From: Botryllus schlosseri | Taxonomy: Eukaryota | Length of the DNA: 64,000 nucleotides | Direction: 5' to 3' | Assembly: GCA_051294905.1 (NCBI GenBank) | Contig: CM119372.1 | Coordinates: 35,280,001-35,344,000, forward strand | Shown here: positions 13,002 to 50,056 of the stretch, piece after piece | Numbering within the stretch: the first letter of the stretch is position 1 | Layout of the letters: each line of letters begins with the position of its first letter | Made by a program: the position numbers and the translations under genes | Notes under the pieces: generated by a model | What the model was told of the DNA's origin: nothing | The model's input: the letters and a program-made list of their open reading frames with translations, nothing else | Databases searched by the model: none

Positions 13002-13217
13002 ACAACAAATTGTCGCCAAAAAAGATTAATTGCTTGGTTGATCAATATCAAAAGGAGAAGTGCTTCGAATATACGTGTTCACAATTCAAAGATTATGACG
13101 AATGGGTTTCATTCACACGTGTTAAGTTTGGAATAGATCCAACGGGGACCGATACAGAGATAAATAATACTCCGAAGGAACTTCGAAAACTATTCGAAAA
13201 ATGGTTGGACTACATCG
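13002..13217 (+). CDS. Death-like repeat exon R1 (phase 1-1, 216 nt)
   Basis: ttgacAG|ACAAC ... TACATCG|GTgagt; SPKKINCLVDQY..KCFEYTCSQFKDYDEWVSFTRVKFGID...LRKLFEKWLDYIG. Confidence 0.88.
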
Positions 13218-14120
13218 GTGAGTGCAACTGTAGTTATAGAGGTTCAGCAATGTCTTCGGAACGTGCTGTGAAATATATTACATTATTCAATTGTGCTGCC
13301 ATTGGGAGATAAATTGTGCTAGATATACGATTATTGTTGATCATGTGTTATGTCACCATTAACATTGTGATTTAACGCAAATAAAGGATTTTAAAATTAT
13401 GATTTTAGGTAATGTAAACCAGTCTTTGATACTATTTTATTCGAAGTTTATATAGTTTCCCGGAGTATACTGAAATATTGTCTTAGCTTCATTAGGCCGA
13501 GTCCCGCGGAACATCCCCCAATGTTTATTTTCCTATAAAAGTGATTAATACCGATTACCATAAAATTAATAACGATATATGGGTTTGTGATATTTTGTAG
13601 GTTGTACGTTTGATATCAATTTTGAATCGAACTACGACGTTTCAGCACATTATATGAAATTTAAATTCCAAAGACCAACATAATGTGACGGTCATGTTTT
13701 GAGGTGTGGAATAAGTACCATTCGCGGGTAATAAAAACTTGCTCTACAATGCAATTCATTCTTTAGAATTCCTGCTTGATTCAATGTTGTTTAAACAGGC
13801 CTAGTAGCGTTGATATGATCAAAAATAAGGCTGATAGTCTTACGTGGGATCCATATCAAATTTTGTCTAACCCGATATATATGCGCGCCGCCCGTTATAT
13901 GTTCTATCCTTTTAATTGCAACTCGCCAACGTAAAAGAACATATAAAACGTTCAAGATTGCATCAATTATGGTTTCCATCCCTGTACATTAATACTGGAC
14001 TTTACAAACATTAAACATTATAAGCGTTTCTGATGATGGGCTTCATAGGAATTCAGTGACTTGGTGAAAAATCATTATTTGCAGTGCTACATTCATTACC
14101 GATTTAATATTTTTTGAAAG

Positions 14121-14348
14121 GAAATACATCATCTCTGACGGACATTCGCGGTTTTGTTGATGAACATCGAAAAAATAATATCGAAGACTGCTTTGAATAT
14201 ATGTCTTCCAAATTTCGCGATTACGGGGAGTGGGTTTCGTTCACACATGCTAAGATCGGAATGAATCTTTTGAATGGTGCCGGAGAAGATACAATTGAAG
14301 TATCAAAGAAATCTCGGACATTATTTGAAAAGTGGTTGGAGCACATGG
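14121..14348 (+). CDS. Death-like repeat exon R2 (phase 1-1, 228 nt)
   Basis: tttttgaaAG|GAAAT ... CACATGG|GTagga; SLTDIRGFVDEH..DCFEYMSSKFRDYGEWVSFTHAKIGMN...TLFEKWLEHMG. Confidence 0.88.
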
Positions 14349-14923
14349 GTAGGATTTAACGGCTTATCTGTGTGCCCTTTATTCATTAGTATATTCAATA
14401 TAGGCTTTAACAGCAAATGTACAAGAGTGTAATTGCTGCAGAAGAAGCTTGTTTTTAATGATTTGTCTTTTGATTCCGTGGTAGCAAAACCAATGTAACG
14501 CGCATTGACAATCGAGCCATCTTTTATTGATACATTCTTGACAACCGGTACCTCTTCCTTGACACCAGCCAAATCATTTTCATTTGTTTTCAATCTCTTG
14601 CCTGGTTTTCTTGAAACCTGACCTAAGTGTGTCTCGTTACGTAACCGATTTTTTCGGCTCTCATTTTACCTTGATAGACCCAAAAAACCATTTGAGATCA
14701 GAAAGATTACGTCATATAATTTCGTTTCAATTCTGAAATGGTGTCTTACTTCGCAGCGTATATCCATTATACAGTCCATGGACTCCATTCCAATACGCAT
14801 ACACAGTAAAAACACACATCTATTCTATATATAGCCTATCTATGCATTGGAATTGCTGTGCAGGTTGTAGGTTTTTTGTTGATACGTTCCGCGGATTACC
14901 AAACTACATTATGCCATTATATG

Positions 14924-16255
14924 CAGAGGTGGTCAGTAACGAAGTACTTCTACTTTTTCGAAGTACTCAAGTAGTTTTCCTCTACTTCTGGTACTTACTC
15001 AAGTAGATCTGATTTTCGCTACTTCTACTTCTACTTCGTAATATTTTGTGATCTACTTACTTACTTTTCGCTATTTTCAGTTTGTCAAGTAGAGGTAGTT
15101 CAATCTTCCAATCAGGAAGATAGCCTGAGGAATTTCAGGGCTGTTTTCACGGAGTATCAACATTTAATTTTCATTAAAGTTGAGTAAGGCCCAGAATTTT
15201 CGTCGCGCTTCGCGCGCAGTGGATGCGGAGTGACCAGTATGATTTGACGAAAGTATCGATGACTATAGTTTAGGTAGCGGATTGGCGTGGTTCGGTTCAC
15301 ACAGGGATATCTGGAACTAGATACCTAGATATACCTGCGTTTACACCACATTGTCGTCCTTCGCCCATATGAAATAATTCACCACAGTATATATGGCTCA
15401 TCATAACGTTTGAAACTGATGTTTCGCAATCTAGCATTTACTTGTCATATCGTAATCTAGCATGTCCATGGGCGCGTCATAACCTGGAAAAGTCGACTCT
15501 GACTTTTTTTGTTAGTTTTAGAGCTGTTTTAGGATACCACCTTTGAAACTTTCTGGACTAAAGGCACGAAAAACATGTTCTGCTTTTAAAAGTAGTATTT
15601 ATGTTTCACTTTCAATTCCCAGTATCATGTACCTTGAGTTATAATTATTATCAGTTCATTTGGCTGGATAACATACATGTTGAAGAATAAAAGCAAGCGT
15701 AGTAATGCCTTTAATTTCCGGAAATAAAGCAACACAATATGGCATTTTTACGGTCCATCATATTTTTATTAACGTTTACTAATCGCGCAAAGCGTTTACA
15801 TCGTATCCTATACAACTTCTCTTCGACTAAACTACGGGCCTTATAATATGGGGGATGGCGCCATACCATGCTATTTTCTAAAACGTGCTGTTCGAGAAAA
15901 CAGATGATTAGTATCGCATTTCCATATCAATACTATCATTTTCATCCCCTGATGTGGACGAATGCTCATGCTATCGAAAATTGGATACCTGCTGGTATGC
16001 ATCAATATGAATCAAGCTCGTCACCTTGCGAAAAGCTCCATTTGTCCCCTTTTACAATCCATGTGAACGAATTAGGATCGTTTGCACAACTGCTTATTTA
16101 CTTGAGTACTTTTAAAATCAGTCAATTCTACTTCTACTTCAAGTAGTTTTAGGATGCTTATGGAAGAAGTACTTCTACTCGTACTTGAGTAGATTTTTTC
16201 GTCGCTACTTCTACTTCTACTTGAGTAGCTTTCTTGACTACTTTGACCACCTCTG
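14924..16255. mobile_element. hAT-type non-autonomous element with TACTT(C) subterminal repeats
   Basis: TIR CAGAGGTGGTCA / TGACCACCTCTG; TSD ATTATATG. Confidence 0.88.
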
Positions 16256-16379: not shown

Positions 16380-16610
16380 GCAACGAAGCGTCTCTTACGA
16401 CGATTCGTAAAATGATTGATGAATATCACAATGAACGAATCGACGATTGCTTCGAATACATATGTTCAAAACTTCAACATGAAAAGGAATGGATCACTTT
16501 TACACGCGTCAATGTAGGAATGAATCAGGACACGCCACTGTTTAACAAAGAGAAAAGTGATGATCCAAATAAACTTCGGGGAATTTTCGACCAATGGTTA
16601 GATTACCTCG
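16380..16610 (+). CDS. Death-like repeat exon R3 (phase 1-1, 231 nt)
   Basis: ttcttcgatAG|GCAAC ... TACCTCG|GTgagt; ASLTTIRKMIDEY..DCFEYICSKL..EWITFTRVNVGMN...LRGIFDQWLDYLG. Confidence 0.88.
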
Positions 16611-17772: not shown

Positions 17773-18003
17773 ACTGCAGAGCATCTTTGACGAAGATTCG
17801 TCGAATGGTTGATCAATTCCACAATCGGAGATTCGATCAGTGCTTCAAATATATGTGCTCAAAATTTCAAGTTGCCGACGAATGGGTCTCATTCACTCGT
17901 TCAAAGTTGGGAATGGATTTGTCGGTACACTTGTTCAACGATTTGACCAGAGAGATGCCAATCGAATTACGGGAAGAATTCGAAAACTGGTTAGGGGGAA
18001 AAG
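17773..18003 (+). CDS. Death-like repeat exon R4 (phase 1-1, 231 nt)
   Basis: ttgacAG|ACTGC ... GGAAAAG|GTatgt; ASLTKIRRMVDQF..QCFKYMCSKF..EWVSFTRSKLGMD...LREEFENWLGGKG. Confidence 0.88.
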
Positions 18004-26621: not shown

Positions 26622-28661
26622 CAGGGTTGTAATGACTCGAGTCATGACTCGACTCGAGTCAGACTCGAGTCACGATTTTTTTATGACTCGACTTGACTCG
26701 AGTCATTTTCTTGAAATGGGAAAATGACTCGACTCGACTCGAGTCAATATTTGGATTGACTCGATTTGTACTCGAGTCATTACGCATAACTCGACCCAAG
26801 TCATTGACTCGGCTTATTTTATATGACTTGAAGATGAAGAAATTTGCGAATCATAATGGCTAGATCAACGCATCCGACGAATTCTGCCGACATCGCTATT
26901 TGTCACCACTGCTTTCGTTGCACTTGTCTGATATCAGATATGCCGCCGTAAAAACAACAGAAAATGATACATAGTAGCAATGCATTGTACAAAATCGTCC
27001 AGTGATGAAGAGGTAATAGATCCTCCGCAATTAAAGTACTCAAGACTTTTCAATTATACAAGCAAACAATTGAATCAAAGTTCAATTAGAGCCAATGAAA
27101 TGACTCAGATGGTGAAGAGACTGATAAGCTCATGTGTAGATTTGAAGGCGATGATTCTTTGCATTTTTATGCGACTAAAAAGAATGAGTATTCAATGCTC
27201 TTCAGTGTGGTTCAAAAATGCTTGTCAATTCCTGCATCTAGTGCACTAGTGGAACGTGTATTCAGTAGATGTGGATTCATTCTACGGCCATGCCGCTTCA
27301 ACATATTTGAGGATCTTCTTTCCACATTAGTATTTTTGAGGTGTAACTCATTGATTTGATCTGCTGTCTGTGAAAACACACAATGCCCCTCGTCCATTTG
27401 ACGTTTTGTTAGGTATGTGCATTGTGCACGTGAGTAATAATGAATGGCTGATGTTGTGTGATGTTTGTACAATATGGCTGTTCTAAAATAACTTCTTTTT
27501 TATTTTACTGGGTGGTTACATGATAAAATTGTTATGTTGCATAAAAGGAACACTGCATCTGGCTTAATTTGAAAAAAGTGGAATCAATGATGTGAGAGGA
27601 GAATATTTTGGATTTGAAAATAAATGGAGTATTTTAGTGAGAAATTCTTTCATATATTATAATTACATAGTAGTAAGCCGACTATTTTTCATATCCAAAA
27701 CATTCTACTGTAATAAGTTCACTTTTTCTAGTTGGAATTGAGTCAAATTTGCTATGAATCATATTTTTACACAATGTAACAATATCATGAGATAGCCGGT
27801 AAAATTCGAAAATCTCTATTTGTAATTAGTCTAAAATTTTCTTTCATAGCATTGCTTTCTACTGGTTGGAATTGAGCCAAATTTGATTTTTTAGGCAATC
27901 TAGCAATTTTAAGAAGTAGCCGGAAAATTTGAAAAAATGTTTTTGAACAGCCCCATTGTACAATTATTTCTCCAATGCTGTAACTGCGATGTAGTCTGTA
28001 ATGCAATTGGGAAAACCTTTAGTATAATCAAAAGGTATCTGTTCTGTTGTCACTGCACAATGCACATAGTTGCATGCACGCTTTTACAGCATGCTGGCCA
28101 GTTGTAAATACCTCTACATAAACATGCATCTATTGATTCTCTATCAACTAGTATCTTGACGTTCTCTATCAGATAGTATGTAGACGTGAATTCGTTGGTT
28201 CTCTATCAGCTATTCGTGAGCTATCGTCGATGTGTTCATAATAAAAACTGAATGCTTGTATTGGTGATGTATCAGACTGACAAGAGAGATATTTGGTTTT
28301 AAGTTCTAAGATCAGTAAAGTTATCTTTAGCATCGGTAAATGAGGCCAGGATCTGTCCGTTATCTGCCTAAATAAACACGTGCCAAGACTCTGATAGGGA
28401 CAAAATGAGCATGTTTCGCAAACAGGGAATTCGATATCACCCAAGCAGGATTGAAAACATGAGTTGAACATGACTTCAATACTGTGACTTGGACTCGACT
28501 CGAGTCATAACACCATGACTCGGACTTGACCCTTTGAACGGTGACTTGGACTCGGACTCGAGTCTGTGATGAATTGAAAATGACTCGTCTCGACTCGAGT
28601 CAAAACCACAAAAGTATGATTGACTCGTGACTCGGAACCATGTGACTTGGTTACAACCCTG
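26622..28661 (+). mobile_element. Internally deleted hAT transposon retaining C-terminal dimerisation domain
   Basis: TIR CAGGGTTGTAA / TTACAACCCTG; TSD TCTCCAAC; ORF 27132-27359 LSIPASSALVERVFSRCGFILRP is the hATC motif. Confidence 0.92.
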
Positions 28662-30656
28662 TCTCCAACTAGCGGCCAAATAACTGATTCATTTGGATTG
28701 TTGAATTGATCATTTTGGACAGAATGTGAAGAAATTTTAGTCAAGAATTCTTTTTGTGTTAGTGGCTGTTTTCAAAGAGTGCTGAAGTAGTCATCGCTGA
28801 TCTTGATAATCAAGTAGAAGTGACGATTGAAGTCAGTTCTCTAGTCATATAATATTAAAAAATATAATAATAAAACTTGAAAACTTGAGTGGAAATAGTT
28901 CAGAATCGAATCCATTTTAGTAAGTATGGGCGAAAAAAATGTAGGAGTCATTCGTTAGTCGCTACCTCTGCCATTTTCGCAGTACGAATGTCTTAGCTAT
29001 TAATCATCATTTTCATTTTATTTCTGCAGGGTGTTGAAAAAAAAAGGCCGCATGCTGGTTATTTAACTGGCTCATCAGAAGATGAAACCTGATGATAAGG
29101 ACTGTTTTCACTTTATTTATAATGACATTCGTTCGTTTGTTCGTTTTATTTTTTACAACGGCATTATTGCCAATTCGTTTGAAATTAAATTATCACAAAT
29201 GTGATTAATATGTAGTAAATAATGTGGTGTGTGTACGCAGCCGTGATCAGGTTAAGCCCATAGTGGTAGAAAACAGGTTATTATATCAGGATCTTCTTCT
29301 TCTAACGTAGGATCTACATTCTACTCACCATGTTTAAAGGCTGTAGCATCTGCATAATATTTACATTATTGAAGGACATGGAAAAGACGTTGAATTGAGT
29401 CGACACAAAATCCCCCTTTCTACGACCTGCCGAGATCTAATATCTACTATATCGGCTCGGCTTTTCTACATCTTTGGTCTGTACTGTGTTTGCTGGGGTG
29501 CCTCTTTATTCGATTTTGACATGCTGTGCGCAGCAGGATAAAATACCTAGTTGGAATCATTTTGTGGAAAAGAACCTGAGCTATTCGAACATAAGTGTTT
29601 CAACGGGGAATTGGCGATCTAAAAGTACACGCAATTCATTTTACATGAATGTCAATAAACCTCTGCATTCATGCAAACGTGTTGCAAACATTGTCGGTGG
29701 ATATTTTGCGAGGCGTGAGACGAAAACATTTGAGTTTTGGCAGATTTTGTCGAATATTAATTTGCAATGAGAACTCAGGGTTAAATACAGAAGTCTTGTT
29801 CTACTTTATAGTCATATGTCCTTACTTCACCCTCTACTGCGACGCCATTTTTCATATCGCCCCTTGGGGGCGCTTGCGATCAGGTTAAGATATACTGTGC
29901 TAAACCATACTGTTTGTTGAGGCATGACCTAATGATGTGAATTGCGAGTCTGTGTCCGAACTAGGCGGGCAAATTCCCGAATTAATTTGAATGATTTACG
30001 TGCAGTCTTTACTTTAGCTCTTTTCCTGAGAGTGTTGACCGGGTGGAGAGATTACAGAGATTAAAATAAAGACCATTTTTATCGTTGTTTGGGGCATTAA
30101 CGTTCAACTACATTTATTTTTGATGGCTTCTACGGATTCACCTCCAAAAGTTTATTGAAATGGGGCCGTGATAACCCTCTAATTCCTGAGGGTGTACCAG
30201 CGGGGTGAATAATTGGGCAACTCTCCTCAATTTGGCGATCGTATATTTGATATTTTGCGCGCTTTCGTATTTCCTATTCATGGCAGAGAGTCCCACATAA
30301 TCAATTGCTTAATATAACAATAGATATGAATTGAATTGTAATTTGAAGCGGCTTTTGATTGGAATATCACATAGATCTAATACATGATCATAACACCATG
30401 ATCCTGAGTTATTAAAAGGATATTGGTAATTTGTGTCAAGATGGGTTCACCATCAGCTGACACATTCCTGTTTTAACATATCAAAGTTAACCGTACCACA
30501 CGCCTTGAAATCATTAATATTGACCCATAAATCGTGTCATCATACCCAGGTCTGATTCCCCATTCAATCATTGACTCACGAGTCGGTCAATGTTTCGTTC
30601 ATTCGTAACTTTCTTCGGAATGTATCATTTACCTTTGTACCTTTGACCTTTGACAG

Positions 30657-33769: not shown

Positions 33770-33807
33770 GGCATCACTTATTGAATGATTCTGTATCTAA
33801 TTTGTAG

Positions 33808-34026: not shown

Positions 34027-34522
34027 GTGAGTACGAGAATACATGTAGCTGCCTAACCATTTCTATGCAATGTTCTTCAGTGGAGTTCTCTAATATGGAA
34101 GAATTGTGTCTTCCAAAGCACATGTTCGAACATGCTCAATATGTTCGATATCCATTGGCAGATGCAGTCACTTTCGGCGATGTTCATCATCGGTGAGGTC
34201 TGACTCCTTTAGAGTCAGATTTATATATTATAAAAACCCTTAAAACCCATAATGGCAGTTGATTCAGTTGCCAACTTATGTTTGATGACATGAACACTCT
34301 TGACACTCATGCTACGTAGGAAGCTACTATATACAATATAGCCTACATATCCAGAATTGAGGATGGTTATAGATGAGGAATACCTAACAGTTACAGTAAC
34401 TGGGGCATGAATTTCCTCTACACTATATGTCGGCCGTCTCGAGTACACGATCCATACTATATAGTCGGTTTGAGAATTGGACAGCGTATTATTTCGCTGT
34501 GATGCGGCTGTCTGACCTGGTT

Positions 34523-36650
34523 GGTTGCCCGATATAGCCTATGAGCATGCGACACAATGAAAAACGATAGGTAAGCATGCGACGCTAGAGCATGAGAACA
34601 CATTAGCACGGCGACACATGATCATAGGGACATATGAGCATGGTGAAACATGAGCAAGGGGATACATTAGGGTTACCATATTTTTGAGAAGCAAATTCCG
34701 GACACTTTGTAGCGCCCACTAGCGGATTTTATAATGAGGTGTAAACTCATTGACCGTCAATATGACGTCAGACTGGCAAAGCATTGCCCATCGAATGTAC
34801 ACACTCTACAGGAATGGAGTGAAACATAGGGCATGAATTAGGCCATCTGTAATGTGAGCTCTGGTGATTGCTACTTGCTAGGGTCTGCAATAGATTTCTC
34901 CACGGGCCGGATGAAATCATCTGACGGGCCGTGTTTGGCCTGTCAGGATTGTGATTGGCAGTCCTGCTATACTGTTAGGTCGGTGGGCTATCGGTATATG
35001 TGTTTTATTCATATCCGAACCAACATTTTCCCCTCCCCCTCCCCCTCCTTCCGCCCAAAAAAGCACTGATCTTGAGCCCACCATAGGATAGTCGATGTAC
35101 CTTGTTGGGCACATACTATATGCATTTGGCTGTTAAATTTTATGTATGAATTCTGTCAAAAAAATATTGATATTGATTCTTCCATATATTAGACTATTAT
35201 AAATGCACCAGCAGGTTGCACATCCGGTGATTTCCAACCTTTTATGGTCGCGACCTCATTTCCCACTCGAAAATGTTCCGTGACAAAGCTCAAGATCATC
35301 GCGATCGCCAGATAAAGGCGAACGACCCCAAGATTTGGAACCATGCACTGTCTGTGATTGAAGCATCCAATCGGCCTTAACCAACTCTAGGAATATACCA
35401 TTAGCTTATAATGGCGATTACAATCAGACTTATTTCAGTAAATGATGGTTATTTATATTACTTCTGATTGCAATTTTTGGAGAGGGTGGTGCCTGGTGCC
35501 CATACTAATATCATTATACTTTGCATTAACTCGCGCGCGGCGCGAAGAACAATTTTGAATAGCATAAATCTGCTTGAAAATAGTATTGTTTATGTTGATT
35601 TACGAAAAACTTTTGAGCCTGCTTCAAGCCTTCAAAATTCCGGACATTTATGCATATTTTAGAAATTCCTCCCGGACGCAGATTTTTCAGTGAAATTCCG
35701 GACATGTCCGGGAAATTCGGGACGTATGGCAACCCTAGGATACATAGGCAAGGAAACAGATTAGCGTGCGCTTCTTGAGCATATAATTACGCATTAGCAT
35801 GGGGACTAATCAACATGGTTACATATGGGCTTGGTAACACGTGAGCATGGGGGCACATAACCATTGGGACATTTCAGCATGTTGACACTTGTGCATGGTG
35901 ATGGTGATATATGAGCATGGTGAGATATTACCATGGTGACAAATGAGCATGCGGACACCTGCACATGCGACACTTGAGCATGCGACACCTGAGCATGCGA
36001 CACTTGAGCATGTGGCACCTGAGCATGCGACACTTGGGCATGCGACACTATATCATTTGTCATTTATTAGTGTGTAGTTAACTAGCGTCAAAACCATGGC
36101 TTTATACCAGTTCGAAAATGATATATCCCCCTCCCTGCCCTAATACCAATCACCCTCAACCCTAATCTTGGGATACCTTAACCCTAACCCTAACCTAAAC
36201 CTTAACCCTAACGTTAACCCTAACCTAGCCTAATATCCATCATCCCCAACCATATTCTTGAGATACCTTAACCCCAACATGTACGCTAACTCACCTCCAA
36301 CCCTATGTTCCCCTACCCACCCACGTAACCTAAAACTTCCCTATCTGAGAATAATAATTCTCACTGAATGAATTTTTATTGCAAAATAGATCAAGTGTCG
36401 CATGCTCAAGTATCGCAGGCTCAATTGCTCATGTGTCACCATGCTCAAGTGGCACTTACTAAATTGTCACCATGGTCATGTGTCCTTATGGTCACGTGTA
36501 TCCATGCTCGTGTGTTCCCATGCTAATATGTCCTTATGTTAATTTGTCCCTGTGCTGATGTGTCTACATGCCCACGAGTCGCCATGACCAAAAGTCGCTA
36601 TGATCAAGTGTCGATTGCTATTGTGTCGCATGCTAATATGTCCACGGACC
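34523..36650. mobile_element. Foldback/MULE-like element with 15-bp GAGCATGCGACACTT-type tandem arrays in inverted arms and a central (CCCTAA)n-like tract
   Basis: Arrays at 34540-34667 and 35750-36050, inverted at 36390-36640; flanking duplication GACCTGGT(T/C); CCCTAA tract 36150-36280. Confidence 0.7.
34668..35737 (-). mobile_element. hAT-type element nested in the foldback element
   Basis: Ends TAGGGTTACCATA / TATGGCAACCCTA; TSD GGATACAT. Confidence 0.85.
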
Positions 36651-37919
36651 GACCTGGTCATTGTTTCTCCGCCGTCATCGTAAGTAACTAGCGTACGTAA
36701 TTTCACATTACTTGGTGATTTGGAAAGGAGGTTCTAGGGCAGACCTGGGTAAAGTGCGGCTCGCGAAGTCATTCTGTGCGGCCCGCGAACAGTTGCTTGG
36801 AATTCATAACATTAAACCTGATTTTTGAGTGTTGATGCGTGGACTAAAACCATAGGCTGTATCAACTAAACAGTAAATTCTTATACTTTGAAGCCTGTTC
36901 AATAATATGCCACGATTATGTGGCAAAGTATGAGTAACAATTAAATTTACATGAAATTACTCTTTCAATATGGTTTGGGTCAAATTTTTGTTGCCATGGT
37001 CTTATTACGAATCATACGATACGCGTTTCAAATTTATACATGAGTCGTTTCCAAATCCCTAATCCAGAAAATAAGTCAATCAGTGCTCGCGATTACTATA
37101 TGATTCATCATATCTATCATCCATAAAGGACGAACGCGCGTGTCAAAAAGAGAAAGCCGAAACCAGAAATTCAAAAAAAGGTTTAGAGCACTAAATATCA
37201 TTACACTGGAGTTAAGGGTAAACCCATGATTTTAGTTTTCTCCGAGCATGTCGTCGTCCCCCGCGCACTGATGACAAATTCGCCGCGCATAGAATAATCT
37301 TGCCGCTCTCAAATAAGCTGAAGTGATGACCTATTTTAGTCGGTACTCGTTACGCACTGCTGGTCAAGGGACCGCATGGCGAGTTGATGAGTGCGCGCAC
37401 ACTCGTGAAAAGTAGAGCAGTGGTTCTCACTCGGGGGTCCGAGAACCATTTTTAGGGGGTCCGCGAGACCTTTAAATTTGTAAAGCGATTGATAACCTAC
37501 TATTTTTTTATTCAGGAAAAGCATGGCACAGTTTCGTTTCATAATTGATAAAACTTTTGGACTCACAACCAGGGTTGTAACCAAGTCACAAGGTTCCGAG
37601 TCACAAGTCATTCTCAATTTTTTAGTTTTGACTCGAGTCAAGTCGAGTCATTTTCAATTCGGCGCCGAGTCAAGTCCTAGTTCAAGTCACTGAGTAGAGT
37701 GTCGAGTCCGGGTCCTGGTGTTTTGACTCGAGTCCGAGTCCAAGTCATTGTGTTGACTGTTCAGTACGGAGTTGATGTCATGTGAAACCCACTTTTTACA
37801 ACTCTGCTCGGTGATATCGACGGATTCGCATTCATAATATACTAATTTTCCTCACTTTGAACAGTTTCTGGTATCATTTCCAGTACCAGTACTGATAGAT
37901 GAAATATTAATAGTGCAGC

Positions 37920-39100
37920 ACACTGAATGAAAAATAAAGCGACATTTATGCTGTGAAGCATTGGAAAACAAAAACCGTTAGCTTCAAGTGTTCCAATCGT
38001 TCGGAGAAAGCCAATGGTCGTTGTTACTTCTGATCATGTGTTGTCTTTGAATTCAATGTCAAATATGAGTATATAATTCAATAATAAACTGCTCTGCGCA
38101 ATACGACCGATTCCACATGGGACGGATGTAGCAATTTCATTGCCTTCTACAGTTTTACTAACAGTTGAAGAAGATTCTTAGGTGAAGAGTCTTTGTCTGA
38201 AGAATGTTCTCATCATGAGTGTCATGGTGATCAGCAGCTATATAAAGTTGGATCAAGCGGAACTAAATGATTTTGTCATAAATTTGAAATTACCAAAGGA
38301 TTCTGCTCGTATTGTAGGTTCTAGATTGAAAGCCAAACGTATTCTTAGCACTGATACTACTTTTGATCGGTATAGGAATCGTGATAGTGAATGCACAGTA
38401 GCACACGCTTCTTTGCCTCCGAACCCTCTTTAGTATGCTGTGTGGGTGTTCAAGGTATCATAGAGAAATTGGGAAATGAAGGAAAACGTTTCAGAGCCTG
38501 CAGTTATTGACAGATCTAATTTATATTTCTAGTGGCAGTTCCACCATTATATATAAAACTGGATGTAATGAAAAGTTTTTTGAAAAGCTCTAAACAAAGA
38601 GAGTGTACGTTTTGAAAACATTCGCACAAATTTTTCTCACTAGAATTCCGAGAACGTTAAAAAGGGTGTATGTGATGGTCCTCATATTAGGACACTCATC
38701 AGAAACCACATGTCTCTTATTACCAAGACGGGTTTAGAGAAGATACATCACTCTCTTTCATCGAAGGTACATCTGAATTTCTTGGAAATACTGAGGATCC
38801 TTATTATTTTGAGGGTAGGCCTATAGTTTGAGATAATAAAACCCCAAATCCCATTAAGTTAGTTGAAAGCTTTGTATGATTTGTTTCGTATCGTATAACC
38901 ATCTCCTGAGTTGTACTGGGGCATAAGCGCCCTTAATACAGCCGTTTTTTATTAAAATTTTCGTTCGATTTTTGCGAAAAATTGTGACGTGATGAATGAC
39001 TTCTGACGGCAATTTCTGAATTATCATCGTCGAACTAAATACACTCAATTATTCGTTCTAAAAAAGTAATACAAAAGTTGAAAAATACCACCCAGAGTAA
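37920..39100 (+). pseudogene. Decayed DNA transposase, Chapaev3 (CMC)-like
   Basis: Broken-frame motifs RPIPHGTDV, QAELNDFVINLKLPKDSARIVGSRLK, PPLYIKLDVMK, KGVCDGPHIR; family assignment from memory of the ELNDL..L.L.K and PPLHIKLG motifs. Confidence 0.65.
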
Positions 39101-40072
39101 TTATTGGTTTACTAATTTATCAATGACAAAATGTTCCGTCTGTCTTCCCTGACCGAATGCCACTGATTAAATACGTAGTAGATGTGTATCGTGGTAAATT
39201 TTTGTTTCCTGGCTCAACGAAAACTGGAGTTGATTGCAGGTTAACGTGAAGGTTGCCCAGGTTGGTAACGGTTAGGTACGACATAGATATATATATCCGA
39301 TGTATTAGTATATTGAAAGAACCCCCGCCACGCCATGTGTCAGGTAATCGATTGACACCAGACACAACTACCTCATACGAGAAGATGATTGTCAACACTC
39401 TGTCTATAGTTTCAAATTTCAAGGTAGGCCTTATTATTGATGTTTGGATAAACCTGGATAGACGTAGTTTGAGCTCTGCTGCTTGGCTAGGAGTTTGTAC
39501 TTTTGTACTCGTCAAAACATTACATGGTGGCAATTTCCATATGGAAGCAATAAAATCATTGGCTGCGGATATAAATCATGGTCAAGCTGTTCTTTGCCGA
39601 TACCCGCAACGGCATCTCGCAATGTATGTATTCAGTGGATTACAGACAACAGGCGTACGCTCAACCGGAAGAAGTATTATACATTACTGCAGAATCTTCT
39701 TTTTCTGATTCTCATATCGCCCTATATCTAAAACGGGCACCAATCGTTATTTTGCAATTCCTCACTCAACATTTCACGCCATAGCCACCGCTTATGCCCC
39801 ATGTAAGCAGGGATTGCAGCTAGTATAAAAATTGGTGGGGTGAAATGGCCCGCGAGGTGTAGTCATCCGCGATAAAGATGGCAAATAATATAATATGACG
39901 GAAAATGCATGTGACGACCCATTTAACGATAAAATTGTTTTCTCATGCCGACGCCCTCTGTTTGCAATCGGTATATTGTCTTCAACAGGATAAATATGGC
40001 TCTCACGACTACTGCCATAAATAGACATCATCATGAGAACACCCATTCCGTACCAATGATCTATATCTACAT

Positions 40073-41453
40073 CAGTGTTGGGATGACTCGAGTCATGACT
40101 TGACTCGAGTCAGACTCGAGTCAACTTTTTCGAATGACTTGACTTGACTCGAGTCACTTTGCAAAAATGACTTGACTTGACTTGACTCGGCGCTTCAAAA
40201 ATGTGTATTGACTCGTGACTCGGAGCAAAATTTACGAGTCAATTTCAAGTCATCAAGTTAACGGTGTCGACTAAATCAATGTATTTTGTGCATGTTCGGA
40301 TTTTCCACGATACGCTGTTGTGACTTGTGAGAGCAACCAGTCATTTACTGGTTGTACGTTTCACTGATCCTACATTGTTACATCACAAATACTTTGACCG
40401 CAAATGAAATGATCACAGCTTGCGTTGTCGTAGTAGCAGATTAATTTGATAGCAACTTATCACTGTTTATTGGGCGGCTCTGCTCTTACACTGCACGGTG
40501 CTCACCTTTACCAACCTTCTTGTATGGTTTAAATGGAACAAATATATTTTATGCATTCATATCCTCACGAATGTGTATAGATGGCTAGTGTATTGTACGA
40601 TATCAATTTCCTCCATCTTCTCGAGGCTTCGTATTCGATCCTCTATTTTGGCTGATAATAAGAGAATGTAGCATGTAGTTCAGAGTTGTCCAACTCAACT
40701 GACGTCGCGGGTCGAATTCAAATATTCAGATCACTCGCGGGCCGCAACAATCAAATGATTCCAAAATATTACTAACTCTTAACTCAATATATGCACTTTT
40801 TCGCATTCTCGGAATTGAGTGTCAATGTCAGCGATTTTCTCCTGACGATGACTACAATCAAAACTCCACTGTCGGGTGGTTATAATGTGGCCTATGAATA
40901 TACTCGAAATTTGCTATCTTGAAGGAATATATATTAGTAGTATTTCTTACAAGAAATTCGAGAAATATGTTCGATTAAATCACGCAATTTTCAACATATA
41001 GCCTACTCAGAATTTCTTCGCGGGCCGAATGAAATCATTTGGCGGGTCGTATGTTTGACACCCCTGATGTAGCTATGCAGTTACTGACATATTTTATTAG
41101 CAGTTCTACGTGTGCGGGAGCGATACAACGCATTTTTGCGTGTATATTTAACTTTAAATTCGTTATTTGATTCAAGATTATTGACCAATTGATCTCTTTA
41201 ACACAGCTAGTAAAAGATAAGGAATTTAAATGATCACTCATACTTCGAAAATTCAATTTGACTTGAATTGTGACTTGACTCGTGACTTGACTTGACTTGA
41301 CTTGACTTGACTCGAGTCACCTCCAAAAAACGAGTGACTTGACTTGACTCGAGTCACCTTTGAAAATCTATTGACTTGACTTGACTCGAGTCAAAATGTG
41401 CAATGACTCGAGATGACTCGTGACTCGAAGGTGGTGACTTGATCCCAACACTG
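40073..41453 (-). mobile_element. CAAGT-repeat hAT MITE with nested MITE (40681-41066)
   Basis: TIR CAGTGTTGGGAT / ATCCCAACACTG; TSD ATCTACAT; nested TSD ATGTAGTT/ATGTAGCT. Confidence 0.9.
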
Positions 41454-41690
41454 ATCTACATGCTAAAACTGTTGAACCGATGACGATTTCGAGGGTTCCT
41501 GCTACCCCATATCGTATCCGCCGACTATCATGTGTGCACATCGCCGTACTACATGGTTTTGAGGATGTGTTTACGCAATTACGGTATAATTAGACTGCGT
41601 TTGAAAAAAAACAAGTTTTTTCGTAAAAGGCATTTGTTTAAAACACTGTTTTAAACATGATTTAAACAAAATGTTTTAACACCGTGTTCA

Positions 41691-41951
41691 TTTTTGTTTG
41701 TTTGTTTTTGTGGTATTCGTGGTGTGTGTCGACTACTATAGTCATTTAAACCAGCCCAATTTTGTTCATATGTATTCCGTAGCTGCCGACTTGTAGCACG
41801 GCCCCCTCGTAGGTTTTTTTATAGGACACCGCTAACACGGATGACATGGCGAGCCTAGATAAACCTCCAACACTTAGATAGGAAATCTGGAGTCGACCCG
41901 CAACCCATTGGTGTTGTAGCTGTGGCTTATACCACTGCGCTATCTTACCAC
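41691..41951 (-). mobile_element. tRNA-derived SINE
   Basis: Reverse complement has AGATAGCGCAGTGGT A box, ACACCAATGGGTTGC and a (CAAA)n tail, as in the 21552 copy. Confidence 0.8.
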
Positions 41952-42304
41952 CCCGTTCGTTTTAATGCAACCGTATAGCTACGGCCAGGAAGTTGAAAAG
42001 CATTTCCGCATTGAGTTAGGTCGAATGGCTGATCGGCATCCAACGTTCATTCTGCAATCTGTATGAAATTATCAGTTCATTGATATTTGCACTGGTGTAA
42101 TCCCTGGTAACGTAATTTTTTTATAAATGAGTGGGTGCATATAAAGCTGATATGCCATTGGCAATTAGCTGCCGGTAAGTTAAGATCAGATCCTCTTAAA
42201 CTGCTTAGTGTATTTATCGTAGGCCTATGTGACGAGCAGTTGGGGCATTCACTTGAAAGTAAGCGAACTGTAAATGCATAATTCGTTATCCCCTTTTTCA
42301 TTAG

Positions 42305-42532
42305 GCGACCAAGGATCTCCAACAAGGATTCGTCGCTTGGTGGACAAATATCTGAAAGAAAGCCGCGACAAGTGTTTCGACTACGTATGCGCAAAATTCG
42401 AAGCTCTCGGGGAATGGGTTTCATTCTCACGAGTAAAGATCGGGCTGGATTTGCCGAACAAGATGACAGAAGAAAAAGCTGATGCTCACATTGACCGTCG
42501 CGAAATATTCGAAAAGTGGTTTGAACACTCGG
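42305..42532 (+). CDS. Death-like repeat exon R7 (phase 1-1, 228 nt)
   Basis: ctttttcattAG|GCGAC ... CACTCGG|GTaaac; SPTRIRRLVDKY..KCFDYVCAKF..EWVSFSRVKIGLD...EIFEKWFEHSG. Confidence 0.88.
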
Positions 42533-42773
42533 GTAAACCCTTCCACATACTTTTAAGTCTAAACGTTATTTCCAACAACGTGGTGTTTTCCTATTTGGTT
42601 TGGGAATATATAACAAATTATACCAGTAAAATATCCGTCCGTGGGATGAAGAAGCCGATGAAATTATAACTTTCTGCTACTCGAGACCAAACTCAAATGT
42701 GTCCCGTCTGAATATCGCGTACGATTGACGTATGTCTATTCTCATAAACAGCGATTTTGTATTTATTTCTTAG

Positions 42774-43016
42774 GCTTCGAAATGTCCCCTGAACGAATTC
42801 GCTGCTTAGTTGATGCTCATCATAAAGAAACAATCAACGAGTGCTTCGAATACGTGCGTTCAAAATTGCAATACTACGAGGAATGGGATTCTTTCACTCT
42901 CCTAAAAATAGGAATTGATATTCCGGCACAACTTTCCAAAGACGACCCCACACGCGAGAAGAATAGACCACCTAAACAACTTCGCGAAATATTTGAAAAG
43001 TGGATAGGGCACATTG
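42774..43016 (+). CDS. Death-like repeat exon R8 (phase 1-1, 243 nt)
   Basis: tatttcttAG|GCTTC ... CACATTG|GTaagt; SPERIRCLVDAH..ECFEYVRSKL..EWDSFTLLKIGID...LREIFEKWIGHIG. Confidence 0.88.
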
Positions 43017-44218
43017 GTAAGTAGGCTATGACCTTGGATGGACAAAATTAGGATACAGCGCCTTTTGCATAACTATATACTATACAATGTACTATATCCT
43101 TTACTCGATTCCTTATTAGTAGAGAATAAATCATCCCTAAATGATACTCCGAAATGATATGCTTGATTTGGTGATGTGGATCCGATGATATATTGGGACG
43201 GAGATATGGGCATAGCTCTCTCTCTCTTCATATCACAATTTTTCATCATGCGCTTGTTGATATATGAGCCAATGCCCACGCAGCCTTGCTTAAGTTAGAA
43301 TATTGAGGTACGCTGACCATAACACCATGTCAACCTATTTGTTTCATTTAACCGTTTATGATTCACAATTAGAAGACAACGGTCCGTCTACAACGGTAGG
43401 CCTATACAGGCTGTAAAATATCGAATGAAAAGTTAACCGACAGTGTAAACATTTACGATACAAAATAAATGTAGGTTGCTTTGCAAAATAAATTTGAGTT
43501 TGTTAACAATTTTGACAACTTTATGACCTGACGCTACAATTTTGAGTAATATTTTGACTTTTTTGACATGAAAAACAAAATCGCTCTATATATAACAAAT
43601 CTGTGATGTGGTAGATTTTTGTGAATCAACAAACATATGGCGTTCCGCCAAGGCTTGTAAATTAGCGTGAGTGTTTCGCGAAAATGTTCACCTTGACCCT
43701 TGATTACTTTGCAAAGATAAAACAGAACAATTCTTACACTGACTATACTTCACTCAAGAAAATCGGAAACGTTGAAGTGTCTGCAAGCATGAAAATATAC
43801 TCAATTTCAGAGACTGAAAGAATTGGTTATCAAAGAAAAAGTATTTCATGTCGCACTGTGTCCAAGGCCGAAACAGCACTTCATCACCAACCCGTAAAAT
43901 CAATGGTCTTGTGTCCCCCATTTTGTGATAAACAAAACTTACTGGGGGGTTTGTTCCCCAGATCCCCCCCATCAGGATATACATTTTTTTACCGCTGCTA
44001 CCAATTATTGAATCCGGTTACGTCGAATATTCGCGCGGTGCGCGAAAAATTAATGCAATTCATGTTTGAAATGATTAATAATATTGGGATTGGCATATTA
44101 ATTGCTCTAATAGAGCTGAGTGAGGTGTTGTCTTGGAAAATGTAGGACCCGTCAATGTTTATATTCAAACATATTCGGATGGTCCAGATGATATACTGAC
44201 TTCGCTACGGCTACATGA

Positions 44219-45317
44219 CAGTGTTGGGATCAAGTCACTACCTTCGGGTCACGAGTCATTTCGAGTCATCGCACATTTTAACTCGAATCAAGTCAAGTCA
44301 ATCGATTTTCGAAGGTGACTCGAGTCAAGTCGAGTCAAGTCAAGTCAAGTCAAGTCAAGTCAAGTCACGAGTCAAGTCAAGTCAAGTTGTCTTTTCGAAG
44401 GATGAGGCATGATTACGTGAATGAATTTGGCGAGCTGTCTGAAATCAAGATTGAGTGGTCATTGATTCCGGACCGATGGACGAATAGAGTTAAATGTATG
44501 CGCAATAAGGCGTTGTATCGCTCATATACGTAGAACATACGTAGGACTGACTCTTTGGGGTAGAGAACTTCAACATACATTTTAATATTATATTCATAGT
44601 AAAATATATTAAAACCCGAAGCTTTTCGAGCTGACACTTTTCAAGGGCAATCGTCACCAAATGGAGAATTTCAAAAACATGCATCTAGCTACATTGCATA
44701 CAACCAACGTAGAACTGTTAAACTACGTAATTAATTACAGATAGCCCCAGTTTATAGTTACCAGCAAAATAGAGAATAGAGAATAGAGAAAAGATTTGAT
44801 AAAATGCAATACATTACCCATTTACTAATTGATATGGTATTATTCGAGCCCGCGCAAATGGTTGAGGACTTTATAAACTATATTCTAATTAAATTTCAAC
44901 AAAGCAAGAGGTTTTGTAAAGGTAAAAACACAGATAAGGAATAGACATTTTGCTACTAAATTAATTTCCTACTAGTTTAGGACAACGTATGCCGTAAGAT
45001 TCGGTCACTTCGTTTGCGGTCAATTTATTTGTGAGAAAACAATGGAGGTTAATTAAAACACACGATCATTGAATGATTCGTCGCTCTCTCGGGATACACC
45101 AGCGTTTCGGGAACAGTCCGAACATATGCATGATATGGTGATTTTTATCGACACCGATTTCTTGATGACTTGACATTGACTCGTGGATTTTGCTCCGAGT
45201 CACGAGTCAATCGACATATCTGATATGCCGAGTCAAGTCAAGTCAAGTCATTTTAGCAAAGTGACTCGAGTCAAGTCGAGTCATACGAAGAAAGTGACTC
45301 GAGTCCTCCCAACACTG
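44219..45317 (+). mobile_element. CAAGT-repeat hAT MITE
   Basis: TIR CAGTGTTGGGA / TCCCAACACTG; TSD CTACATGA. Confidence 0.9.
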
Positions 45318-45629
45318 CTACATGATTATATTTCTTGATTTCTTGTCTGCTATGTCAAAAGATATTGGAATCGCCCAAACGCACGAAACTAAATGACTCA
45401 CACGATTTCAAATTGGTATTTCCCCACTGGCATATAATTTGTGTTCATTCACGAAATCATTTCGTGCCCATCCGAGGTCTCCGCCAATGGGGTTTGAGGT
45501 GCGGCGGTTACGGTTCTGACTGTGTCATCGGAGCCACATCGCCCCCTATTGATACGACATGATCATCGTACACAAGTGTTAAGATCAAAATGTATAATTC
45601 GTGCGTATTGTTTTCAATCTGAACAAAAG

Positions 45630-45857
45630 GGTCGCCCGCAAGACTCCGTAGCATGGTAGATGAATATACGAAGGAAATGCTCGAAGAGTGTTTTGAGTAT
45701 ACACGTTCTGCATTCCTAAATGATGACGAATGGGCTGCGTTCACACATTCGGAAATCGGTCTGGATCGGTCGGTGCTTTCAAATAACGATACCAATGTGG
45801 AGCCAAACAACCCAATCAAACTTCGCAAACTTTACGAGACTTGGTTAGAACACCTCG
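45630..45857 (+). CDS. Death-like repeat exon R9 (phase 1-1, 228 nt)
   Basis: gaacaaaAG|GGTCG (weak purine-rich acceptor) ... CACCTCG|GTaagt; SPARLRSMVDEY..ECFEYTRSAF..EWAAFTHSEIGLD...LRKLYETWLEHLG. Confidence 0.82.
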
Positions 45858-46148
45858 GTAAGTACGACAGAGGTTTTCGGTTTCGACCTTCTCTGTAAAA
45901 ATTTCGTCAAAGCACGTCATACATGCGATATATAAAAAGGATACGTAGAGTAAAAATGACGAGTTATTGCGAACTAAACCTATAGTCACCGCAGATGAAA
46001 TTCACTCTCGTGTATCATCAGTGTCATCCTCTTCTAGTACAAAAAACATCGAACTGTATCACTTTCTCACATTATCATGAAATGCATCACGTATTTCACA
46101 CAGTAATTGTAATTTATAATTTTCAAGTCAACATTGTTTTGTCTAAAC

Positions 46149-46533
46149 CAGTGGTTCCCAACATGGGCGATGTTGGGAATCAATGGGGCGAAAATACCAA
46201 AGGGGGTGACAGGTGGCGCTGGGGGGCGAAAACATAATAATGACCGTTGAGATATATTTAACAATCATGGCCAAAATGCACTTGAATGCGGATTTTTCTG
46301 CATATGACGCGAGGAAAAGGTCAACTATAGGCGCCAAGTAGACGTGAAAACCGGTTCTCCGAACACCTACTCTGAAAAATTATCTGTTTTTTTAGTCAAT
46401 TCAGAAGCGATCAGAGTTAGGTGAACCAATATCCAGTTTATATGTCCTCATTTTCGGAAACGTATATATGGGGGCGAAAATTACTATCGAGCTTGATAAG
46501 GGAGCGATGAGTCGAAAAAGGTTGGGAACCATG
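46149..46533. mobile_element. hAT-type MITE
   Basis: CAGTGGTTCCCAAC / GTTGGGAACCATG; TSD GTCTAAAC/GCCTAAAC. Confidence 0.75.
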
Positions 46534-47447
46534 GGCCTAAACTTTAATCGGAAGGAAATCCTAATTCCTGCAATCAAATTTCGAACGCCATTATTGGCTG
46601 CTGTGCATTTCTTTGTACACAATATGCAACATTGCTGCTAAACACCAACAGATGATAGCACCTAATTTCTTTGGTTTAACTAACAAACAACCACAAGATG
46701 ACTATAGAATGAAAAGATAGGAAGTTGTGGAAACGACTTTGATTAGTCTTCGAAACCATACACCCAGATAGGTATTTTCCGTAACTAATATGTGATACAT
46801 TCACTACCGATTACGCCAATAACTAGCACCTTCGCCCAAAACCTATATATATTCCGCTCATTTAAAACACATGACCTCACATGCGAAAAGCCTTATCGCC
46901 ATGAAATAAATGAAGGCCGCATCTGAACACCCGTAAGCAGAGGTGGGTCATTATGAATGTACTTCAACGTCATCAGAGTACTCAAATAGTTCCGGCTTAT
47001 TACCCAAATTTCCCAAGTGGTTATGATTTTGGAAACTTTCGACATTTACAGTTCTCTGCTCTTTTGACAAAAACTTGGCACAAAATAATTACTTTTTTAC
47101 TCCTCTGGAAATGGCTAATGTTCTCCGACTATTATGTTGTTAGTTCCCAAAATTTGCCGGTATTTTCGACCTCTCGTGGGCGATACGATATTTCTTTCAA
47201 AGTGCAGTATTGATTCGATATTATCGGCGAACCGTTAATCGGTCGAGTTGTAATTTTAGCCATTGAATATGATGTCTTACACATATCTACTTATTACTCA
47301 TACCACTCCGGTTTCTATGCTTTCAGTGCTAAAACTAAAAAATACATTATTGAAAATCAAAATAAATACCTTATTACAGTGGTTCTTGACTGGATTAATA
47401 GAAAACCACAGGGATTTCCCGAATTCGTCTCAGGGCTTCCGCTAGAG

Positions 47448-48099
47448 CAGTGGTTCCTAACGGTGGAGAATTCCCCAGTGATGGGGAATTCAATGGTTTC
47501 CAGTGGGGAATAGACGCATTTGTTAAACATAATATATAATATAGTATACTGATTTACGAAGAAACCTACGCGATAACCGTTACCAGTTAACTGCTCTGGG
47601 AAATATGTATCGAAAATTATACAGTCTCTTGTTCACTAAAACTATTTTCTAACTCTGGATAACCAATGACGGCGTCCCAAACGCTTCCAGCACGAGCAGT
47701 ATGACGTGAAATAACGCTTTTGCTAAATTTTGAGAGTTACCGGTATCGGCTCATAATACGTTTTATGTTTTAGTTATAGGCGATTGTCTTGCGTATTGGT
47801 GTGGTTGTGCGTCTGGTGTATCCAAACAAGCAGCGAACGTCAGAGTTTAGTGGAAAATCGGGAGCCGAGTCAAATTAATTACCTTTATTTTAGTCAACAC
47901 AATATATTTTTGGTCGAAAAATTTTCAGAATCACCAGTTTTCTAGGAGCTTTGATGGTTTATAAAAAGTGTTCTCTTTTGGGATGTCAGAATATGGTAAC
48001 CCTATTTCAAAGGGCGTATGGGAGTTTTGGGTAGTGGGGAATGAAGACTCGGAATAAATCTGGAGCGGGGAATGAAGACAAAAAGATTGGGAACCACAT
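47448..48099. mobile_element. hAT-type MITE
   Basis: CAGTGGTTCCTAA / TTGGGAACCAC; TSD CGCTAGAG. Confidence 0.75.
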
Positions 48100-48427
48100 C
48101 GCTAGAGGTCAAGCCACACAATCATCTCGTATATATGATTAGCGACAATACGCTTGTCTTGATTATCATTAGCGGCAGACCATTATATGCGCAGTAGGTT
48201 GTCGAATTTGCGACCCTTGTTATGTATGAGGGAAGGGCCGGGGTATCCAGGGTAGGTTGGGGTTCGACCTCGAAACCACGTTATTTTGAAATACTGATAA
48301 TATATGTTCAGTATCTATTAGCTCATTTGTAATTAAGAAATTGCTGAACAATGAGTAGGCGCTTTTTAAGGCGAAGCCTCGTATGTCCAACGGGTATCCT
48401 GGAGGAAATAGCAATGAATCAATACGC

Positions 48428-49158
48428 CAGTGGTTCCCAACCGGGGGGGGGGGGATTCCCTTCTTGGGGGTATTTTTGAATTTTTTAGGGGGGAATCTGG
48501 CTTAATATTTTCAGGGGATATCTGGCTTTGGCATTGTATCGGAAGATACACTATCTTCACAAGTTTGTTAGATTTGTATGGTATAGAACTGTTAGGTAGA
48601 AATTAGTTCTTTACAATTGTATGTTTCTTTGGCGGATTTAATGCTAGGTATATGTTTAAATGCCTTCCGTAGATATTACACCTTCTGAGAAAACGACGCT
48701 CACGAGCCTATATCGTTGGGTCCGCGACAGCCACTCGACCAAAATGCTACTAAACAGGAAAACGTCAAGCCGAATTCAGCACAACGCCGCTGATGAAATT
48801 GTTTAACTTTTCAAGTCAACATATGAGCTAACGTGAAAAACATACCGTACAAAATCCATCGATTCGAATCAAGTCCATAGCAAGCGGACTTGGTGATTTA
48901 TTTTTCGTCAGCGGCTACCCGGCCGATCAAGAACAGGTCAAGTTTGACTGTACTTCACTAAAGTTTAGTGCTGTCCGTATTCGCCATAGTTCGGACATAT
49001 CAGAATATCTTGGCCATTAATTGCTTAATCAACAAATGGTTACGCGTTAAAAAGCTCATTTTTTAGTCACAGGTAACTTTTTCATAAGGAGGGGGGGGGA
49101 ATTTTAGCTCAAATGTCGGCCAAGGGGGGCACGATACGAAAAAGGTTGGGAACCACTG
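48428..49158. mobile_element. hAT-type MITE
   Basis: CAGTGGTTCCCAACC / GGTTGGGAACCACTG; TSD CAATACGC. Confidence 0.85.
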
Positions 49159-49813
49159 CAATACGCTATCGAATACGCACGATGATTTGGTTACCCTATT
49201 ATGGATCATAGAGTTGCAACGGCCAACACGCAGTGCAGAGTATTATCATACCAATGCAGCTGTATGCACTGCCAGCCAGACCTACCTGCAATTGTAGATA
49301 TGCAGTTGTAACTTATTACGTAACATGGGCGTCAAAAGTTCTAATGTGATAACAAATAAGTCGTTACCGGAATTAGGTATCATTTTGGGTTTATATATTT
49401 GTAAATGTCACTGTAACAGCTCAGTGTCTCACCATCTATGAATTTTGCCGCACGTCACTGAAAGTTAAAAACCACTGCAATACAAACTATGGCTAGATTT
49501 TTAACTTTCTACCCCACTGTCATTTACCAGATGACAACGTTTGACCCTTGCGCTTACTTGATTGGTTCATATCAGTATTGGTAAATAATCGTATTACCCT
49601 ACTATCTTTCACGACTCAAGGTTGTTTTACGTGTTCGTACATAGGTTTAAATTCTCGAAGTGGGTATATAGATGTTATGGATGAAAAAATCTTCTCTTCT
49701 CTTTGGCTTTGAAAGATGAACAATATAAATTATAAAACCTCAGAAAATTGATCATGTAGTAATTTGCGTTATGTCTGTCTTTTTCCTTGATGTGATAATT
49801 TTTCTTTCAATAG

Positions 49814-50056
49814 GAACTAATGCATCATCAATCACGATTCGTCAGATGGTGAATCAATATCAGAGCAAAAGACTTGGAAATTGTTTTAAATTTTTGACGT
49901 CACGATTTCAAGATTACGACGAATTAGTCGATTTTTCACGCTCCCAAATTGGAATAGATCTGCCTGAACCTTTCCTAAGTGGTGCGAGCAAGAGGAAGAC
50001 AAGTAATGGTATATTCCAACATTGGAACGCATTCGAAAAGTGGATGAATCACATGG
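49814..50056 (+). CDS. Death-like repeat exon R10 (phase 1-1, 243 nt)
   Basis: tttctttcaatAG|GAACT ... CACATGG|GTgagc; ASSITIRQMVNQY..NCFKFLTSRF..ELVDFSRSQIGID...AFEKWMNHMG. Confidence 0.88.

Follow-up and report, generated by a model that had tools for sequence, protein, structure and literature searches.

A tandem array of ten symmetric exons encoding putative death-domain-like modules in a probable NLR-type gene of Botryllus schlosseri

Ten homologous exons, here called R1 to R10, follow one another on the plus strand between positions 13002 and 50056 of a 64,000-bp stretch of the Botryllus schlosseri genome (GenBank:CM119372.1, positions 35,280,001 to 35,344,000 of the forward strand). 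This whole stretch is referred to as the window, and positions are those of the window unless another locus is named. Since each of these exons can in principle be left out without a shift of frame, the locus raises the question of whether the array is a splicing switch or simply the coding region of a repetitive protein. An initial annotation, made from the sequence alone, had leaned toward the former, with Dscam-like combinatorial splicing as its proposal and exon duplication with constitutive inclusion as its fallback. The analysis described below favours the latter: R1 to R10 are probably constitutive exons of one NLR-type gene, the product of which would carry about twelve death-domain-like modules and serve as a multivalent death-fold scaffold in an NLRP1/PIDD-like receptor.

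The anatomy of the array was established by re-examination of each exon. R1 (bp 13002–13217, 216 nt), R2 (bp 14121–14348, 228 nt), R3 (bp 16380–16610, 231 nt), R4 (bp 17773–18003, 231 nt), R5 (bp 30657–30884, 228 nt), R6 (bp 33808–34026, 219 nt), R7 (bp 42305–42532, 228 nt), R8 (bp 42774–43016, 243 nt), R9 (bp 45630–45857, 228 nt) and R10 (bp 49814–50056, 243 nt) are all multiples of three, are in phase 1-1 throughout, have an AG before and a GT after the exon, and are free of stops; R2 has in addition a second in-phase acceptor, which would move its start to bp 14085. Thus the positions, phase and lengths (216–243 nt) on which the initial annotation had been built were reproduced, as was its consensus, by an alignment in which five columns were invariant (S, C, F, F and W). 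Each R exon encodes one copy of a unit of 71–80 residues, and when the ten were joined by script they gave 2295 nt, or 764 codons, with zero stops. Identity to R1 ranged from 35 to 49% among the R units, and R3 and R4 were 46% identical. A hidden Markov model (HMM) of the unit, run over all six frames of the window and its 60-kb flanks, recognized exactly ten R exons in the window at E values of 1e-30 to 1e-34 (for instance 3.1e-30 for R1, 3e-33 for R2, 9.9e-35 for R3, 4.2e-33 for R4 and 3.2e-32 for R10), and the same search detected no decayed extra R copies in the long introns. When the 495-Mb assembly was searched with one unit, 11 matches were obtained, namely the ten R exons and one locus on a different contig, C3. 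These results confirm that the ten-exon array is real and far beyond chance.

Upstream of R1, two more plus-strand exons belong to the same series, each in phase 1-1 with splice sites and each ending in the R-like pattern W...G directly before the GT donor. DDx (bp 7694–7891; start at bp 7700 if an alternative acceptor is used), predicted to contain helices 1–4, aligned with the R units and was the most death-domain-like unit of the family, being the top match of a death-domain HMM built from this genome in all frames of the region (E 0.0086). R0 (bp 10287–10547) is a diverged unit; the C3 paralogue has a counterpart of it (E 1e-7), which matched the R HMM at E 1.1e-6. DDx, R0 and R1 to R10 together form a chain of about twelve units.

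To establish what the unit is, we compared it with a reference alignment (A3) of 13 PF00531-positive death domains of this genome, drawn from 20 that were fetched out of 116. Beyond the conserved W...G, the A3 domains go on with a helix similar to the starts of the R exons, not to their ends, and the units were therefore cut across the exon junctions for the comparison, giving lengths of 72–87 residues. With exon-delimited units, hhalign reported a probability of 10.5% (E 0.0029) over 26 columns, whereas the cross-exon units gave 86.4% (E 4.6e-6) over 66 columns. All 16 units taken together (DDx, R0 and R1 to R10 of the window plus four of the paralogue) reached 93.0% (E 3.3e-7) over 69 columns, and the same set minus the DDx units still gave 80.8% (E 1.3e-5) over 69 columns. 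The match keeps a single register all the way from helix 1 to helix 5. Alignments that had been reversed served as controls and scored 0.6% and 0.4%; of the column shuffles, 100 per run, none attained the real score (maxima of 19.4 and 16.1, versus 33.5 and 39.2). By these profile-profile comparisons, the unit would be a death-domain-like module that has diverged strongly, in agreement with the intracellular interaction domain that had been predicted for it.

The shift of the unit boundaries that improved the match also bears on the gene structure. Each intron appears to split a death-like module at one homologous point, in phase 1 and inside the conserved glycine codon that would follow helix 4, so that each exon would encode the helix or helices that close one module plus helices 1–4 of the next. 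The locus would then be a clean example of a repeat in which the exon unit is offset from the structural unit, and such an offset would explain the symmetric phases without alternative splicing. That every exon is in phase 1-1 and a multiple of three in length may be regarded as the scar of tandem duplication of an exon plus its intron, not as a splicing switch.

Direct evidence on splicing came from RNA-derived contigs of two small runs of one study, X1 and X2, which were aligned to bp 30600–50100. About a tenth of the sequence words of bp 42200–50100 were present in these runs, which is roughly the share of exons. One X1 contig of 1016 nt joined R5-R6-R7-R8-R9 consecutively, and one X2 contig of 435 nt joined R6-R7-R8 in the same manner; all joints between R exons in the contigs were GT..AG at the predicted boundaries, with 0–1 mismatches. 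In this way 8 of the 20 R boundaries were seen directly in spliced contigs: the R5 donor (joined to R6 in X1), both boundaries of R6 (X1, the donor also in X2), both of R7 (X1 and X2), both of R8 (the acceptor in X1 and X2, the donor in X1) and the R9 acceptor (X1), the boundaries of R1 to R4 and R10 being predictions. Since R5 to R9 were included successively in one molecule, these five exons cannot be mutually exclusive alternatives of the Dscam kind. The fallback of the initial annotation, exon duplication with constitutive inclusion, fits these data.

Downstream of R10, a plus-strand exon (bp 55250–56163) with a 311-codon frame, ending in a stop at bp 56161–56163, may be the last coding exon, an alternative phase-1 donor being present after bp 56122. 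It begins with a helix that would complete the last unit of the array, and a spliced model from DDx to this exon had 1208 codons without a stop. Its AlphaFold model had a predicted local distance difference test score (pLDDT) of 82 and a predicted template modelling score (pTM) of 0.80. With this model, Foldseek retrieved the UNC5b cytoplasmic domain (PDB:3g5b, E 7.6e-11), the ZU5-ZU5-UPA-death domain (DD) part of ankyrin-B (E 1.5e-8), rat NLRP1 (PDB:7crw, E 7.2e-8) and CARD8 (PDB:7jn7, E 2e-5); there were 18 PDB matches at E ≤ 0.001, and among the matches listed all were UNC5b, ankyrin, NLRP1 or CARD8. At the level of the predicted structure, ZU5 and UPA beta-sandwich folds in tandem, that is, a FIIND-like module, are confirmed at bp 55250–56163. 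Atlas features of the frame likewise fell into ZU5/UPA/FIIND clusters (score 0.95). The exon had at least 38 matches in the genome; Pfam recognized nothing in any of 15 members of this family, the family profile found no match among PDB sequences, and a word-indexed search of the 'longer' type with the exon gave zero relatives. The Pfam and PDB sequence searches were blank, and ZU5-UPA was identified by fold comparison only. In the column that corresponds to the autocleavage site, D-H-G stands in the window copy, and (H/K/N)-(F/L)-(S/C) in all 14 of the paralogues that were aligned. Judged from these residues, the window module is probably not self-cleaving, since D-H-G occupies the HF/S-type column, and the family at large looks cleavable.

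It was also noticed that the frames of three paralogues (L031, L034 and L039) run past UPA into short tails rich in Asn, Gly and Val. About 5.2–6.1 kb past the end of the window there is another ZU5-UPA frame, its HFS intact (L005:5191-6099, plus strand), and between it and the window there are two long minus-strand frames of 537 and 273 codons (L005:81-2413), both Pfam-negative.

At the other end of the gene, an open reading frame (ORF) of 600 codons on the same strand ends 0.75 kb upstream of the window and matched NACHT (PF05729) at E 9.1e-6. The paralogue on C3, which is the single other locus with R-like units, has its parts colinear within 13.4 kb (L040:555-5927 and L001:2552-8937, both minus strand), in the order NACHT ORF (42% identical), counterparts of two window exons at bp 535–801 and bp 3869–4610, DDx, three R-like units and ZU5-UPA; its spliced model had 596 codons without a stop. 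It thus has four death-like units, versus twelve in the window gene. Because the paralogue is colinear, the NACHT ORF, the array and ZU5-UPA of the window were treated as one gene. In this gene the chain of modules would lie between the upstream NACHT region and the terminal ZU5-UPA (FIIND-like) module, and we infer that it serves the effector part of the receptor as a multivalent, homotypic death-fold scaffold and would recruit or nucleate death-fold partners. With the autocleavage motif lost, the scaffold would stay tethered to the C-terminal ZU5-UPA.

Several observations weigh against this reading. Pfam Death matched none of the ten R exons, with E values up to 10 allowed, the PF00531 scan of the genome placed zero of its 116 matches in the window, and DDx matched Pfam Death (PF00531) at E 0.17 with 12.5 bits, below the cut-off of 22.6. 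A death domain is a Greek-key bundle of six helices and about 80–90 residues. The AlphaFold model of a single-exon product (R3 folded alone) comprised only three helices, at a pLDDT of 74; with this model Foldseek returned zero matches at E ≤ 0.001, and a wide structural search had its best Z score, 5.3, with an unrelated protein, the death domains of Fas/FADD coming at rank 41 with Z 3.5. The hhalign values were obtained with small alignments made by our own script (effective number of sequences, Neff, about 3) and with a death-domain reference from this genome alone. As for the transcripts, constitutive inclusion was seen for R5 to R9 only, in assembled contigs of one study, and two bulk RNA runs, X11 and X15 (about 1.9 and 1.5 billion letters sampled; bp 30600–50100), had zero depth on the R exons; because of these two runs, expression of the array is taken to be low or restricted. 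As for the NACHT ORF, its 26.0 bits are just under the Pfam cut-off of 26.7, and it is linked to the array by inference, with no read joining the two.

The blank domain searches would be accounted for if the unit were a lineage-specific helical domain, one per exon, that is unrelated to death domains, the profile match then reflecting a convergent helical pattern. Besides the lack of a Pfam match and a single-exon model that forms a three-helix unit with no clear structural neighbour, several other searches can be cited in its favour: a profile search among 1.84 billion representative proteins gave 2 matches to the unit, both of them translated satellite repeats; word-indexed protein searches with the unit alignment gave zero relatives at both the 'longer' and the 'near' lengths; and an Atlas feature search on R8 gave no usable match. 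Among PDB sequences, the unit profile retrieved only a chance row at E 1.1. Convergence, however, would have to produce a match that spans 66–69 columns in one register, becomes threefold longer when the units are cut across exons, and is lost in every reversed or shuffled control. It would also have to accommodate the facts that the first member of the family, DDx, ranks independently as the strongest death-domain candidate of the region, and that the position next to ZU5-UPA is where death folds are located in UNC5, PIDD, ankyrin and NLRP1, as described in PMC3210808. We consider an unrelated domain unlikely.

Still less probable, in our judgment, is the combinatorial cassette system that the initial annotation had put forward, in which regulated skipping of subsets of R1 to R10 would generate many isoforms of the array. 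The gene structure would permit it: the exons from DDx to ZU5-UPA are in phase 1-1 and any skip keeps the frame, and since the introns appear to share one structural point as well as one phase, skipping would, moreover, restore a complete hybrid module. In addition, assembled contigs drop rare variants, and they show the presence, not the absence, of isoforms. Nevertheless, the molecules that were seen carry five and three exons consecutively, with no R-exon-skipping joint among the 15 joints listed (of 35), and the exons would encode successive modules, not versions of one position. Nor did docking/selector pairing, which the initial annotation had proposed to look for, emerge in the introns near the exons. 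Comparison of the 300-nt flanks of 12 exons (blastn-short, both strands, E ≤ 0.01) revealed, as shared or complementary elements, only a trivial overlap in the 241-nt intron between R7 and R8, and no docking/selector candidates were found within 300 nt of the exons, deeper intron sequence being outside the search. If skipping did occur, it would join helices 1–4 of a given unit to the closing helix contributed by a unit further along, providing an innate immune receptor with combinatorial lengths and chimeric surfaces; or else the twelve units might fold in cis into a helical tower of death domains resembling a PIDDosome or Myddosome that is assembled in advance. Both are speculative and, we think, improbable.

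Selection on the copies was examined by Nei-Gojobori counts. The proportion of nonsynonymous differences (pN) was lower than that of synonymous differences (pS) in 45 of 45 R pairs, with a mean pS of 0.65, which is saturated, and a mean pN of 0.37; identity by codon position among the R exons was 0.56/0.69/0.47. Together with the open frames and the splicing of R5 to R9 in RNA-derived contigs, these values bear out the purifying selection on the copies that had been suggested from their conservation, and the R copies are both old and under constraint. The possibility that the array is dead or a pseudogene was rejected in view of its open frames, the visible selection and the existence of spliced transcripts. 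In a tree of the units, R1 to R9 formed a deep, unresolved star without young pairs, R0 paired with the first unit of the paralogue (C3a, support 92/79), the middle unit of the paralogue (C3b) fell outside R1 to R10 (support 97/94), and its last unit grouped weakly with R10 (80/86) on a long branch. That copy number at the array is unstable at present, with haplotypes gaining or losing exons by unequal crossing-over, is very improbable, for even though tandem homologous exon-intron units are the usual substrate of such exchange and the number has changed in the past (4 units in the paralogue, 12 here), little homology is left for misalignment, because the copies are 35–49% identical with a saturated mean pS, the exon-proximal introns have no detectable shared sequence and the tree is a deep star with no young pairs.

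Since the colinear paralogue has only four units, amplification of a middle unit is suggested. The ancestor would have had DDx plus three units, the middle one of which would have been amplified anciently from one to about nine in the window gene; a long divergence under purifying selection would have followed, and the introns would later have been filled with debris of mobile elements. An example of such debris is a remnant of a hAT-family dimerisation domain at bp 27099–27359 (PF05699, E 2.7e-7), which is inside the 12.6-kb intron between R4 and R5.

Two exons upstream of DDx, both on the plus strand, remain to be described. The ORF at bp 535–801, located between the NACHT ORF and the array, is conserved and coding and is a probable exon; its C3 counterpart is 42% identical (tblastn E 5.7e-16), and it had no Pfam match. 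The large exon at bp 3869–4610, running from phase 0 to phase 1 with AG/GT sites, has a colinear C3 counterpart that is 37% identical (E 1.7e-40). It was considered as a first ZU5-UPA-like module, and this was not established, the comparison with the ZU5-UPA alignment giving an hhalign probability of 0.2%, which is not significant.

Other elements are located within the introns. In the R5-R6 intron, a transcribed element at about bp 31900–33200 reached an X15 depth of about 25 on each strand, the reads showing fixed differences from the window at many sites; it probably represents a diverged repeat copy with expression elsewhere. The same intron contains a 168-codon minus-strand frame at bp 32784–33290. 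Dispersed repeats at bp 37110–37760, 39714–40364, 41016–41666 and 43620–45572 had an X1/X2 contig depth of up to about 400 with many chimeric joints. Several dispersed repeats encode frames rich in serine, valine and glutamine, and such frames were also found near bp 11736–12010 and 28360–28771. In the genome at large, many of the Pfam Death matches fell into pairs of equal score, the two members lying about 10 kb from each other on opposite strands, as though some repeated unit had inverted ends that bear death domains; examples are C4:20656892(+)/20667428(-), C5:25440527(-)/25450416(+) and C12:17220158(-)/17243607(+).

If the preferred reading is correct, the window gene would be an extreme elaboration of the NLRP1/PIDD-type design and would represent a subfamily missed by standard domain libraries, so that genes of this kind would probably be undercounted where invertebrate NLR and death-domain repertoires are surveyed with Pfam or SMART. 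Should the array prove to be a multivalent or self-nucleating scaffold, it would offer a natural test of how higher-order death-domain assemblies can be encoded in cis. The C3 paralogue is useful as an unexpanded comparison.

Among known systems, the array is similar to Dscam1 in having tandem homologous, frame-preserving exons spread over tens of kilobases. The exon variants of Dscam1 are mutually exclusive alternatives for one position and are chosen by docking-selector RNA pairing. Unlike these, R5 to R9 are included successively in one molecule, and no complementary elements were found near the exons. Tandem death domains on an invertebrate STAND NTPase have a precedent in amphioxus, for which PMC2246300 describes double death-domain repeats in Apaf-1-like proteins, that is, two units versus about twelve here. 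Surveys of invertebrate NLRs (PMC11508797 and PMC12909245) include Death-NACHT-LRR and FIIND-CARD types; phrase searches of one open-access library, supplements excluded, brought up the amphioxus repeats as the only precedent and found no report of a long death-domain array.

The closest comparisons are with proteins in which ZU5-UPA accompanies a death fold. With PIDD1, UNC5 and the ankyrins, the window gene shares a ZU5-UPA directly beside death-fold domains in a signalling protein, and UNC5b and the ankyrin-B ZU5-ZU5-UPA-DD were the best structural matches of its ZU5-UPA model. These proteins have one death domain after UPA, whereas the window gene has about twelve death-like units before ZU5-UPA. 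According to PMC3210808, PIDD has two ZU5 modules, and an autoproteolytic HF/S or SF/S site is located at the ZU5-UPA boundary; where PIDD has the HF/S cleavage site, the ZU5-UPA of the window has D-H-G. With NLRP1 (NACHT-LRR-FIIND-CARD) and CARD8 (FIIND-CARD), the likeness would lie in an NLR-type protein that combines an effector death-fold part with a FIIND-like ZU5-UPA. In NLRP1, however, a single CARD follows a FIIND that cleaves itself at an SF/S site, whereas the window gene, with its presumed link to NACHT, would combine a long death-like array with a terminal ZU5-UPA that has neither the Phe nor the Ser of that site.

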